The notes under the pieces are model-generated. The model worked only from the letters and a program-made list of their open reading frames with translations, ran no database searches and was not told the DNA's origin. The position numbers and the translations under genes were made by a program. A stretch of 24,367 nt of DNA from Elusimicrobia bacterium CG08_land_8_20_14_0_20_59_10 (lineage in GTDB: Bacteria > Elusimicrobiota > Elusimicrobia > Elusimicrobiales > UBA9959): NCBI GenBank assembly GCA_002779045.1, contig PEXO01000210.1, positions 1 through 24,367 of the forward strand, in the 5' to 3' direction. Position 1 is the stretch's first letter. Each line of letters begins with the position of its first letter. Shown here piece by piece: positions 1 to 5,365 of this stretch.

Positions 1-89
1 ACAGACCACCGGTATGCTCGTTCGTCGCGCCTCGCATCCGCCTCAAATCTGAGCCTCCAAATGCTTCAGTTATTTCGTTACGCTTCCTA
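1..89. mobile_element. Probable end of a MITE/REP-like insertion inside the PAS domain of the sensor gene (runs off window)
   Basis: On the minus strand the PAS-like sequence (KYRSLLDTLNDLVCNLGPDGRILYV) stops abruptly at a TA dinucleotide (89-88) and continues as TAGGAAGCGTAACGAAATAACTGAAGC..., where PAS similarity is lost and A/T-ending codons become more frequent. Resembles from memory TA-flanked miniature inverted-repeat elements; the second end is outside the window, so unconfirmed. Confidence 0.4.
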
Positions 90-1093
90 ACATAGAGTAT
101 CCTGCCGTCCGGCCCCAGGTTGCAGACCAGGTCGTTGAGCGTATCCAGCAGGGACCGGTATTTCTGTTCCTCCGCCGCCTTCCGGCTTTCGGCCAGCTTG
201 TTCTTGAGGATGAGCGAATATACGCGCGCCAACTTTCTTGCGGTTTCCAGGTCCGCTTTGTTGTAGCCGGCCGGCGAGTTGGCCAGGGCCAGTATCCCCA
301 GCACGTTCTCCCCGGCCAGGGCCGGTACGGCCAGGAAAGAGCTTATTTTTATGTGACCCGCGGGAACCCCGCCGGAGCGCGGATCGGCGGCCGCGGTATT
401 GGTCAGCAGCGGCTTTTTGTTCTTCAGTACCCAGCCCCACAGGCCGTTGAACTCTTTGAAGATGAAATTCTTCTTTTTTACACGGCAGTCCTTCCAGACG
501 TTATCGGTCAGGGTGGGTATATGCAGGTGGCCGGTGGCGGGCTCTATATGGCCGGCGAAACCGAAGGGGCTGTTGGTAAGGCGGCGCGCTTCGTCGAGGA
601 CGGTGCGGGAAGCCTCCTCCATGGTAATTTCGGGCAGGGAGAGGAAAACCTCTTCCAGGTGCGTGGTGGCGTCAGCTGTGTCGCGTTCGCGCGTGAGCAG
701 CCTTTCCCTGTCTTCGTACGACAGCCTTCCGCTTATGGCCTTCGCCGCCGCCGTCAGCAAGCGCTTGACGGCGGCCCGTTCTCTGCCGGCGCCGGGTCTC
801 GCCAGCAGGCAGCCGCCCGTTCCCGCGCCGTCTATCCCCGCCGAAATCAACTCTTCCGGTAACTTTCGCTTTCCCCGGCTGATTTCCAGCAGCCTGGCGT
901 GTTCTTCTAGCGTGAAATTTTCCGCGAGGTCGAAGCCCGGGGTGTTCTCCCCGGGCGCGATTATCAGCGCCAGGGCGGCATCCGGGCCGGACGCGTCCGA
1001 CCCGCGCAGCGTCTTCATCACGCGGCGCAGGAAAGCGTCGAAGTTGTCAGGAAGGCCTGCCGCCTCCAGCAGTTTCTCTATCGAAGTATTCAT
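1..1093 (-). CDS. GAF + PAS signal-transduction protein, N-terminal part (3' end outside window); probably a sensor kinase or similar
   Basis: Manually translated: ATG at 1093 (MNTSIEKLLEAAG...) and no stop down to base 1. GAF-like segment FGFAGHIEPATGHL...FNGLWGWVLKNKKPLLTNTAAADPRSGGVPAGHIKISSFLAVPALAGENVLGILALAN, then PAS start EQKYRSLLDTLNDLVCNLGPDGRILYV. Lies 36 nt after the response-regulator stop on the same strand. Missing from the ORF track because there is no in-window stop. Confidence 0.8.
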   Translation of the reverse strand, partial: MNTSIEKLLEAAGLPDNFDAFLRRVMKTLRGSDASGPDAALALIIAPGENTPGFDLAENFTLEEHARLLEISRGKRKLPEELISAGIDGAGTGGCLLARPGAGRERAAVKRLLTAAAKAISGRLSYEDRERLLTRERDTADATTHLEEVFLSLPEITMEEASRTVLDEARRLTNSPFGFAGHIEPATGHLHIPTLTDNVWKDCRVKKKNFIFKEFNGLWGWVLKNKKPLLTNTAAADPRSGGVPAGHIKISSFLAVPALAGENVLGILALANSPAGYNKADLETARKLARVYSLILKNKLAESRKAAEEQKYRSLLDTLNDLVCNLGPDGRILYVRKRNEITEAFGGSDLRRMRGATNEHTGGL

Positions 1094-1129: not shown

Positions 1130-1816
1130 TTACTCGAACTTGTAACCGTGGCCCGCCACGGCTATTATGCGTTTGGCGAAACTACCCGTTTTTTTCCTGA
1201 GATTGGATATGTGCACTTCCACGGTGTGCGGGTTATTGTAATCCGCCGTGTTGTAGCCCCAGACCGTCTCCAGCAGGCCGGTAAGGCTCAGCAGCCGCCC
1301 GGGGTTGGAAACCAGAGCCGTCAGCAGGTCGAATTCCTTGGAGGTGAGTTTTACCGGCTTTCCTTTTATCTTTACGGCCCGGCCTTCCAGGTCCATTTCC
1401 AGGTCGCCTTTTTTCAGGCGGGCTTCCTTCTTTGAGCCGCGCGCGGACCTGCGGATCACCGCTTTTACCTTGGCCAGCAGCAGGGGGTAGGAGAAGGGTT
1501 TTGTTACATAGTCGTCGGCGCCGAAGGTATAGCCTGAGACCATATCAGCTTCCGAGATCTTCTTGCCGGACATTATGATCAGAGGAATGCCCGCCGTTGC
1601 GCGGCCTTCTTTTATCCTGCGGCAGAGGGTAAAGCCGTCCATGCGCGGCATATCCACGTCCGTTATTATCACATCGGGTTTTCCGGCGGGGACCGCGGCC
1701 AGCGCCTGTACGCCGTCGGCGGCCGTCAGGGCCTCGAAACCGTGGTTTTCCAGGTATTTTTTCAGGATGGACAGCAGTTCGTCGTCGTCGTCGACAATAA
1801 GCGCGCGTTCTTTCAT
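1130..1816 (-). CDS. OmpR/PhoB-family DNA-binding response regulator
   Basis: Receiver (LIVDDD, ITDVDMPRMDG, ADDYVTKPF) plus winged-helix domain (LTSKEFDLL, VWG, TVEVHISNLRKK, GHGYKF); 228 aa. Confidence 0.95.
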   Translation of the reverse strand: MKERALIVDDDDELLSILKKYLENHGFEALTAADGVQALAAVPAGKPDVIITDVDMPRMDGFTLCRRIKEGRATAGIPLIIMSGKKISEADMVSGYTFGADDYVTKPFSYPLLLAKVKAVIRRSARGSKKEARLKKGDLEMDLEGRAVKIKGKPVKLTSKEFDLLTALVSNPGRLLSLTGLLETVWGYNTADYNNPHTVEVHISNLRKKTGSFAKRIIAVAGHGYKFE

Positions 1817-1944
1817 TTCTTAACCCCTTTTACGGCGTTTAGAAAATTATATACAAAAAAGCGCCCCGCCGGAATGATCATGATGTTCTGACAGTATGCC
1901 TTACTGGGATGCGTCATTTGTTGTGCCCGGCGGGGCTTAAATTT

Positions 1945-2035
1945 AGCCAGCGCTGCAGGATGCTAGAGCAAGGGGCCCGAAGGCCCCGAGTCTTGGGGGT
2001 TGGGTTAGGGGGGCGCACCTCACAGCGCTGGGGAT
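1945..2035 (-). repeat. Conserved structured element, copy 1 (91 nt); candidate sRNA 3' domain
   Basis: Near-identical to 2174-2265 (39-nt identical block 1961-1999 vs 2190-2228). Minus strand folds: CCAGCGCUG/CAGCGCUGG outer stem, C-rich internal segment, GGGGC-C(UUCG)G-GCCCC hairpin. Confidence 0.85.
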
Positions 2036-2077
2036 TCGTTGAATTTGTAAAAGAACAGTACGACTTGCGACACTTAA

Positions 2078-2131
2078 AGTATAGTAAAGAGCGTTCAAGA
2101 AACGTTCAAATGCAGCTCAAAAGACGCTCAA
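2078..2131 (-). promoter_or_regulatory. -10 TATACT preceded by four 11-bp-period direct repeats, unit 1
   Basis: Plus-strand AGTATA at 2078-2083, a 9-nt gap, then GTTCAA 2093, GTTCAA 2104, GCTCAA 2115, GCTCAA 2126. Confidence 0.6.
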
Positions 2132-2173
2132 TATCAGCCTGGTCTTTAGACCGCAAAGTTTCATCTATAAATC

Positions 2174-2265
2174 AGCCAGCGCCGCACGGTGCTAGAGCAA
2201 GGGGCCCGAAGGCCCCGAGTCTTGGGGGGTTTGGGTTAGGGGGCGCACCGCACAGCGCTGGGGAT
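2174..2265 (-). repeat. Conserved structured element, copy 2 (92 nt); candidate sRNA 3' domain
   Basis: Direct repeat of 1945-2035, offset 229 nt; same stems, inner stem CGGUGC/GCACCG perfect in this copy. Confidence 0.85.
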
Positions 2266-2331
2266 CTTGTGCCGTACCTGGACCAGGTCCATCGGACGGC
2301 TGTTTTTTAGAGAGCTTCCTGCTGCCTTTAT

Positions 2332-2385
2332 AGTATAACAAGGCGGGTTCAGGAATCGTTCAATTGCGGCTCAAAAGATGTTCAA
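2332..2385 (-). promoter_or_regulatory. Extended -10 (TGnTATACT) preceded by four 11-bp-period direct repeats, unit 2
   Basis: Plus-strand AGTATA at 2332-2337, a 9-nt gap, then GTTCAG 2347, GTTCAA 2358, GCTCAA 2369, GTTCAA 2380; geometry identical to unit 1. Confidence 0.6.
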
Positions 2386-4915: not shown

Positions 4916-5365
4916 ATGAAATGTCCTTTTTGCGGCGCGGAAGAGACCAAAGTCACGGACAGCCGCGACTCGTCCGAGGCCTTTGAAATAAGGCGGCGGC
5001 GCGAATGTGAGAAGTGCCAGAAACGGTTCACGACTTACGAGCGCATAGAGTCCCACCCGCTGGTAGTGATAAAAAAGGACGGCCGGCGCGAGGGCTTTTC
5101 CGTGGAAAAGCTGATGAGCGGCATCGTGAAATCCTGCCAGAAGCGGGAAGTTAGCGTGGAAAAAATGGAGGAGGCGGGGCGGGAGATCGAGAGTTCACTG
5201 AGGAACGAGGACAAAAGCGAGATCCCCAGCGGCGTTATAGGGGAGCTGGTGGCCAAAAAACTCAAGAGACTCGACAAGGTCGCGTACATACGGTTCGCAT
5301 CCATCTATAAGGATTTCGAGGATGTCACCGATTTCGAAAGAGAGATCAAATTAATAAAGAGATAG
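4916..5365 (+). CDS. nrdR: Transcriptional repressor NrdR
   Basis: MKCPFC...DSR...IRRRRECEKCQKRFTTYERIE zinc ribbon plus ATP-cone (VIKKDGRREGF...LDKVAYIRFASIY). Confidence 0.98.
   Translation: MKCPFCGAEETKVTDSRDSSEAFEIRRRRECEKCQKRFTTYERIESHPLVVIKKDGRREGFSVEKLMSGIVKSCQKREVSVEKMEEAGREIESSLRNEDKSEIPSGVIGELVAKKLKRLDKVAYIRFASIYKDFEDVTDFEREIKLIKR

Follow-up and report, generated by a model that had tools for sequence, protein, structure and literature searches.

Twin C-rich structured RNAs beside a two-component system in Elusimicrobiales

The LhrC RNAs of Listeria monocytogenes act on ribosome-binding sites through several exposed C-rich UCCC motifs. Their genes, LhrC1-5, are present in multiple, partly tandem copies and are induced via the OmpR-type two-component system LisRK (PMC4132741). 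The csRNA genes ccnA-E of Streptococcus, each driven by the OmpR-family regulator of the CiaRH system, carry the direct repeat TTTAAG-N5-TTTAAG 10 nt upstream of the -10 region and no -35 region (PMC3091779). These small RNA (sRNA) genes have the strongest promoters of the regulon, and the csRNAs contain an unpaired pyrimidine-rich region, for which translation initiation regions are the presumed partners. RoxS/RsaE (RF01820; ResDE/SrrAB) uses several single-stranded C-rich seeds for G-rich Shine-Dalgarno (SD) regions and acts independently of Hfq (PMC5419742, PMC2790875). Here, we describe a comparable locus in Elusimicrobia bacterium CG08_land_8_20_14_0_20_59_10, a metagenome-assembled genome (MAG) of 2.6 Mb in 453 contigs that is 91% complete. 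The window, i.e. the whole stretch of DNA that was analysed, comprises 24,367 nt of contig PEXO01000210.1. Its minus strand contains two paralogous units, U (2385-2176) and D (2131-1855), in which a hexamer array and a -10 element precede a leader and a core with a C-rich loop, and a gene for an OmpR/PhoB-family response regulator is located directly downstream. The element is a real structured RNA. Judging from the genomes searched, it represents a new RNA family that is confined to one Elusimicrobiales family and has a circuit design already known from other bacteria, and Elusimicrobiota would be one more phylum in which a two-component system drives sibling pyrimidine-rich sRNAs, a recurrence that points to convergent evolution of the circuit. 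We favor, with a probability of roughly 60%, the view that the two units encode sibling sRNAs that are activated by the neighboring regulator and pair with G-rich mRNA sites via the C-rich loop.

The csRNAs resemble the twin units in having sibling genes, an OmpR-family regulator, and a hexamer-N5-hexamer arrangement, which here reads TTGARC-N5-TTGAAC and ends 9 nt before TATACT. However, the CiaR hexamer is TTTAAG and occurs twice, whereas TTGA(A/G)C occurs three to four times here, so that only the geometry is common to both. The folds also differ, because in csRNAs an anti-SD and anti-AUG region lies between two stem-loops, whereas here the C-rich tract is an internal loop of one long stem and lacks CAU. 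In addition, a second terminator domain is present here, the phylum is unrelated, and there is no similarity in sequence or by covariance model. Compared with LhrC, size and fold are different, and the C-runs are longer (C5-6) and are located in a single loop. C-rich single-stranded regions and two-component control, which is predicted here, are shared with RoxS/RsaE, but the latter is single-copy, is found throughout the Firmicutes, and has a central-metabolism regulon. Redundant sibling sRNA genes are the main or only direct outputs of the regulator in the GacA-RsmY/Z, LuxO-Qrr, and OmpR-OmrA/B circuits, and here the array is found almost exclusively at sRNA promoters. The Rsm RNAs, which are rich in GGA, serve as protein sponges, Qrr promoters depend on sigma-54, and OmrA/B use a 5' seed together with Hfq; none of them matched the twin RNAs in sequence or structure in the Rfam search. 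Covariance models of csRNA (RF02379), RsaE (RF01820), LhrC (RF00616), OmrA-B (RF00079), and Qrr (RF00378) gave no match at threshold. An earlier inspection of the letters alone, here called the sequence-only reading, had likened the C-rich tract to the seeds of known sRNAs, and the multi-C-run build is indeed that of RoxS/RsaE, LhrC, and the csRNAs (PMC5419742, PMC2790875, PMC4132741, PMC3091779).

Anatomy and structure of the twin units

Both units follow a common plan: four hexamers recur every 11 bp, TATACT comes 9 nt after the last of them, and a leader of variable length links it to a core of about 85 nt. An alignment of U and D revealed 82% identity overall and near-identical cores. In unit U, the array (2347-2385) consists of TTGAAC (2385-2380), TTGAGC (2374-2369), TTGAAC (2363-2358), and CTGAAC (2352-2347), with an exact 11-bp period. 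It is followed by the extended -10 element TGT-TATACT (2332-2340, with TATACT at 2337-2332), a predicted start at about 2326-2324, and a leader of 66 nt (2262-2326), which contains the conserved motif GCUCUCUAAAA and a lineage-specific hairpin (2300-2271). In the core (2176-2261), two stems, one outer and one inner, enclose a C-rich tract that stays unpaired (2244-2219) and a UUCG hairpin (2216-2201). In unit D, the array (2093-2131) contains TTGAGC (2131-2126), TTGAGC (2120-2115), TTGAAC (2109-2104), and TTGAAC (2098-2093), again at an 11-bp period. TATACT (2078-2083) leads to a predicted start at about 2071 and to a leader of 42 nt (2032-2071), in which GUUCUUUUACAAA is the unit D version of the conserved leader motif. 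The core of unit D (1947-2031) is built from an outer stem (2031-2021/1957-1947), an inner stem (2019-2015/1963-1959), the C-rich tract (2014-1990), and a UUCG hairpin (1987-1972). It is followed by a 3' domain (1855-1937), in which a 10-bp GC stem (1937-1928/1872-1863) closes a loop of about 55 nt and precedes a GC plus U6 stretch (1860-1855), an arrangement typed as an intrinsic terminator. Counted from the predicted start, the unit D RNA has a length of about 215 nt.

The sequence-only reading had described the same two minus-strand units, with arrays, the 9-nt spacing, TATACT, leaders of 42 and 66 nt, and a conserved element, and had folded the latter into an outer stem, an inner stem, a single-stranded C-rich tract, and a hairpin capped by C(UUCG)G. 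Both the architecture and the fold were recovered. It had also proposed paralogous sRNAs of about 130 and about 150 nt with a shared core. The siblings with a common structured core stand, but the lengths and 3' ends do not, and the lengths are probably wrong because unit D runs on into a conserved second hairpin-terminator domain, which had gone unnoticed. Also absent from that reading was the extended -10 element (TGnTATACT), which turned out to be the consensus of the family.

The predicted minimum free energies of the minus-strand RNAs were -39.2 kcal/mol for D (z -3.3) and -48.8 kcal/mol for U (z -4.6), whereas the plus-strand folds (z -1.3 and -1.8) were no better than those of shuffled sequences. 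An alignment of 51 homologues from the window's genus (A2) was analysed with RNAalifold, which recovered the structure proposed earlier. Compensatory double changes occurred in 9 of 26 pairs, and canonical pairing was found in 99.2% of the cells, compared with 28-49% when the partners were slid; the observed covariation was reached by none of 500 shuffles. In an alignment of the core across eight genera (A5), 10 of the 13 outer-stem pairs showed compensatory changes. The loop pattern C5-6 UAA C3-5 AAA C4-6 AAAG was almost unchanged across the genera, and the C-rich tract remained unpaired over 25-28 nt. By contrast, the internal hairpin was wholly replaced in other genera while the C-rich loop persisted. 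G-U wobbles in the stems had been taken as an indication that the RNA is encoded on the minus strand. This argument holds and could be extended to 42 distinct homologues, in which the sense strand pairs in 99.2% of the cells and the mirrored antisense structure in 88.2%; the 124 G-U cells and the weaker antisense pairing place the RNA on the minus strand of the window. A coding function was rejected, since a plus-strand open reading frame (ORF) of 133 aa and a minus-strand ORF of 51 aa had no Pfam match and the cores of the homologues contain non-triplet indels of 1-2 nt.

Most homologues continue past the core with a GC stem of 10 bp, which closes a loop of 50-60 nt, and then a U-run; unit D contains this domain, whereas unit U lacks it. 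In several genera, the outer stem of the core is itself trailed by U5-9, and there the sequence suggests that the stem and U-run must terminate transcription; in the window's genus, this U-tail is degenerate. RNAalifold supported only the closing stem of the 3' domain, where a single genus contributed one compensatory C-G/G-C exchange, and revealed no consistent structure in the loop. The loop contains about two copies of U[AC]AG[AGU]C per RNA (94 observed versus 3.5 in shuffles, in sequences that are related and not independent). In individual 3' domains, e.g. at loci L011, L012, and L114, the large loop has 1-4 copies (GUAAGGC, GUCAGGC, GUAAGAC), which shift in position but are kept across genera, and motifs of the ACUCC/ACUCAC types are also present. 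These motifs may constitute a protein-binding or a second seed module. In several relatives, a strongly structured element of about 150 nt (z -4.0) is located exactly between the core and the terminator domain (L011:1600-1760; also L013, L015, L018, L019, and L023). It had no match in Rfam, has related copies scattered through the window's genome (C81:16913-17034 and C310:1285-1387, among others), and looks like a miniature inverted-repeat transposable element (MITE). Its precise insertion between the two domains argues that they are modular.

Distribution of the RNA family

A search of the entire window against Rfam 15 gave no match at the gathering thresholds, in agreement with the earlier statement that no named RNA family could be recognized. 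When the region 1800-2500 was searched at E<=10, only a mammalian long non-coding RNA model, on the G-rich opposite strand, and a Plasmodium RNA were retrieved, both far below threshold. By BLAST and covariance model, the window's genome contains units U and D and one diverged paralog on another contig. Within the genus, BLAST detected the core in 34 of the 36 other genomes, mostly as two tandem copies, but not in two other families of the order. The covariance model R1 identified the RNA in 68 of 80 genomes, representing 9 of the 13 genera of one GTDB family (Elusimicrobiales), and had no match in the 28 further families of the phylum that were sampled. Outside the window's genus, the RNA is usually single-copy. 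A scan for the exact C-tract pattern, with one genome per species, yielded 42 Elusimicrobia/Elusimicrobiales MAGs, derived mainly from groundwater, aquifer, and sediment, and three chance matches in unrelated organisms. Our literature search on Elusimicrobiota retrieved no described regulatory RNA. The locus provides the phylum with a well-supported sRNA family that spans about 70 genomes and in which the stems covary and the promoter follows a defined logic. As the hosts are uncultured, its practical value lies in genome annotation, with a covariance model for Rfam, and in the reading of metatranscriptomes.

Promoters, neighboring genes and expression

Direct repeats at an 11-bp period are the geometry of the OmpR/PhoB family, as in PhoB boxes. 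At both units, such repeats take the place of a -35 element, which corresponds to a class II promoter of the OmpR/PhoB type: three to four copies of TTGAGC/TTGAAC in 11-bp phase end 9 nt before the (extended) -10 element, and no -35 hexamer is present 16-18 nt from it. On the minus strand, a sigma-70 scan returned no promoter, which is what dependence on an activator would lead one to expect. The terminator scan was limited to loops of 8 nt and, therefore, misses the long-loop terminator of unit D. The array, its spacing, and TATACT are conserved in the window's genus and five others (g1, g8, g10, g70, g11, and g68), with TTGAGT as the hexamer in AT-rich genera. The leader motif GYUCUUUAAAA is likewise kept across the genus and five other genera. 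A three-hexamer pattern matched the window four times, in overlapping positions and exclusively at units U and D, whereas 0.00 matches were expected (100 shuffles). In the window's genome, the triple-hexamer pattern occurred only at the sRNA promoters, and in five near-complete relatives it occurred at the sRNA promoters and at one extra site. For an OmpR/PhoB-type regulator that is otherwise anonymous, and for the large GAF/PAS sensor associated with it, TTGAGC in 11-bp phase is a candidate DNA-binding motif.

The extra site, TTGAAC-N5-TTGAGC-N5-TTGAGC at L143:1330-1370 on the minus strand (relative G024, contig C5), lies upstream of an XRE-family helix-turn-helix gene; its spacing to the -10 element is different, and the gene may be a further member of the regulon. 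A weaker three-hexamer site in 11-bp phase outside the sRNA locus, TTGAAC-N5-CTGAAC-N5-CTGAAG, was seen in the window's genome at C241:5683-5699 (minus strand).

The regulator gene (1130-1816, minus strand) encodes 228 aa with the Pfam domains Response_reg and Trans_reg_C, and its product is the presumed activator of both promoters; the nearest NCBIfam models are PhoB, below the cut-off. Next to it is the N-terminal part of a GAF(/PAS) sensor gene (2-1093, minus strand), which is cut by the contig end. Full-length relatives of the sensor contain GAF, two to more than five PAS, and HisKA domains. In every genus, a tblastn search placed the regulator and sensor genes beside the RNA; identity among the regulators of different genera is only 40-60%. 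The gene order is recG<-, sRNA->, regulator->, sensor-> in four genera and regulator->, sensor->, sRNA-> in three genera (g11, g68, and g65). That adjacency is kept through this rearrangement points to a functional link and argues against a role as a cis-acting leader. The stretch between unit D and the regulator gene contains a strong terminator as well as a separate promoter with TATAAT. Together, the RNA has the attributes of an independent sRNA gene, i.e. a promoter of its own upstream, a stem with a U-tract and/or a second hairpin with U6 downstream, and a position relative to its neighbors that shifts among genera. The neighboring regulator probably controls both sRNA genes, as judged from the conserved array promoter, the near confinement of the array to sRNA promoters, and the adjacency in all genera; the sequence-only reading had already compared the pair with known regulator-controlled sibling sRNAs.

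Two sensor orthologues, of 1408 aa with GAF and at least five PAS domains (L132:2501-6727, minus strand) and of 652 aa with GAF and two PAS domains (L133:4364-6322, minus strand), stop just past HisKA and lack HATPase_c, and they may represent split or kinase-less sensors. Beyond the sensor gene of one relative lie genes for a second OmpR-type regulator and for a HisKA+HATPase_c protein of 254 aa that is devoid of a sensor domain. Upstream of the regulator gene, TATAAT ends 6-8 nt before the ATG (window 1817-1853 and relatives), so that its mRNA looks leaderless.

The best holders of the locus were groundwater and aquifer metagenomes, and four metatranscriptomes carry part of it. Seven RNA-library contigs with lengths of 88-190 nt were placed on the region 1600-2700, all of them within 1867-2056 and none on the flanking genes. 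The 190-nt contig (1867-2056) covers the end of the leader, the core, and the second domain, and a 183-nt contig from a relative (salt-marsh run) covers the leader, the core, and the start of the second domain. The sizes fit the predicted long form of about 215 nt. The contigs support, but do not prove, expression of the RNA.

Proposed mechanism and alternatives

In the mechanism that we propose for the sibling sRNAs, the large cytoplasmic GAF/PAS sensor would feed the OmpR/PhoB-family regulator, and the phosphorylated regulator would bind the TTGAGC/TTGAAC array, which would stand in for a -35 element, and switch on both genes. The transcripts would begin about 7 nt past TATACT and consist of a leader with GYUCUUUAAAA and a long stem that presents the C-run tract beside a small hairpin, to which the unit D transcript would add the second hairpin-terminator domain. 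The exposed C-runs would then most likely pair with G-rich single-stranded mRNA sites, e.g. in ribosome-binding regions, and thereby repress target mRNAs independently of Hfq, as is the case for RoxS/RsaE, LhrC, and the csRNAs. We infer that the regulator binds the array and that the RNAs act on targets by base-pairing; the exact positions of both transcript ends are likewise predicted, and targeting of SD sequences would be a further inference.

Several observations weigh against this mechanism. The link between regulator and array rests on gene adjacency and the near-unique occurrence of the array, which are associations. Unit U has no clear dedicated terminator after its core, which runs straight into the promoter of unit D. 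The RNA-library contigs are unstranded, stem from relatives, and have no mapped 5' ends; moreover, the flanking genes are less conserved, and carry-over of DNA is conceivable. A genome-wide search for exact complements of at least 11 nt to the sRNA found none at a credible translation start. When the loop was compared with all GGGG windows using RNAduplex, the top matches were self-antisense or palindromic G/C-arm repeats, and a duplex scan of translation initiation regions, based on crude ORF calls, was dominated by noise and did not reveal a convincing target. C-runs pair poorly with GGAGG. In addition, GGAGG was found at only about 5% of long-ORF starts, whereas TATAA/ATAAT words were enriched three- to fourfold within 18 nt upstream of them, a hint that leaderless initiation may be common in the lineage. 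Weak SD use and many seemingly leaderless genes make a general anti-SD action less obvious than in Firmicutes. Lastly, the tract is invariant over about 27 nt, which is more than would be required of a short seed and also compatible with a protein or a fixed RNA partner.

Two leads from the target analyses were dropped. A G-rich 'leader' on contig C164 proved to be the antisense of the C-rich 3' region of a real gene; at this site (C164:300-345, locus L144), the gene lies opposite the G-rich stretch and is trailed by a C-rich 3' region with GCCCCCGCCCCCTGCCCCCCTATCCC, another exposed C-run element. Furthermore, the leader motif GYUCUUU (2300-2315 and 2045-2060) has its complement in codons 2-3 of the regulator gene (1816-1805; AAAGAGC/AAAGAAC), in the window's genus only; within the window, AAAGAAC and the GUUCUUU of unit D form a perfect match. 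As a lead, feedback on the regulator mRNA is weak, since the motif is kept in genera with a different regulator start and no co-variation was seen.

The invariance of the C-tract is one argument for a different function of the RNAs, namely that of regulator-driven decoys, whose C-run loop and/or repeated U[AC]AG[AGU]C motifs in the 3' domain would titrate an RNA-binding protein (poly-C/KH-type, Rho, or another one) or G-rich RNA elements, in the manner of CsrB/RsmZ. The tract is kept across genera although the regulators have diverged, the motif in the loop of the 3' domain is far more frequent than in shuffles, albeit in related sequences, the target scans yielded no convincing mRNA, and the strongest predicted partners were the G-arms of palindromic repeats. 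In these repeats (C425:376-397 and 5007-5100, C240:10227-10248, C14:3485-3506, C80, and C209), one arm is C-rich, CCCTTCCCTCCCCCC, and the other is G-rich, GGGGGAGGGYYAGGGTGGGGGG. The predicted duplexes of the G-arm with the sRNA loop reached -38 to -44 kcal/mol, and the loop itself is similar to GCGCCCCCCACCCTAACCCTCCCCC, the reverse complement of that arm. However, no candidate binding protein was found, CsrA and Hfq were not detected in the 91% complete genome, and the multi-C-run build is that of the proven base-pairing sRNAs RoxS/RsaE and LhrC (PMC5419742, PMC4132741). We consider a decoy function unlikely, but it is the main rival of base-pairing with mRNAs. In its most specific form, which appears quite unlikely, the two-component system would have essentially no other job than to produce these RNAs, which would not act as ordinary anti-SD regulators and whose C-loop and U[AC]AG[AGU]C motifs would capture a specific protein or the G-arms of the palindromic repeats. 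If this were true, the RNAs would be a C-rich counterpart of the Csr/Rsm sponges in a lineage with many leaderless mRNAs and apparently with neither Hfq nor CsrA.

The remaining alternatives concern the origin and control of the transcripts. The arrays might be bound by another regulator, for which the second OmpR-family regulator with its small kinase just past the sensor gene of one relative would be a candidate, and the adjacency of the first regulator gene would then be a historical accident. This reading is distinctly improbable: the first regulator gene stays beside the RNA in all genera despite the rearrangement, and the 11-bp direct repeats, which are almost unique to the sRNA promoters, have the geometry expected for an OmpR/PhoB-type protein. 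The location directly upstream of and co-oriented with the regulator gene in four genera, together with the missing terminator of unit U, would suit an element that acts in cis on the regulator-sensor operon, as its 5' leader, attenuator, or riboswitch. This is very improbable, as it is contradicted by the gene order in the three genera that have the RNA downstream of the sensor gene, by the strong terminator and separate promoter in front of the regulator gene, and by RNA-library contigs that end within the RNA. The sequence-only reading had offered a dispersed, REP-like repeat that was duplicated with its promoter as its alternative, and the tandem duplication and the presence of other dispersed structured repeats in the genome are in line with a functionless REP/MITE-like element. 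Two copies and one diverged paralog per genome, a locus that is fixed and syntenic in nine genera, and compensatory stem changes beside an invariant loop render this explanation hardly credible.

The diverged paralog is located at C279:1114-1201 on the plus strand (locus L003/L134) and has an R1 score of 28 bits. It is a simple hairpin, the loop of which contains CCUCCCUAACCCAAACCCCAAGC and a C6 run, and such a third hairpin RNA is present in 7 of 43 genomes of the genus. Its promoter, TTGCCC-N16-TATAAG, is ordinary and devoid of TTGAGC repeats, and a weak U-tract follows the hairpin. The motif CCCUAACCCAAACCCC is common to the loops of the twin units and of this differently promoted RNA, and the C-tract, therefore, looks like the working module.

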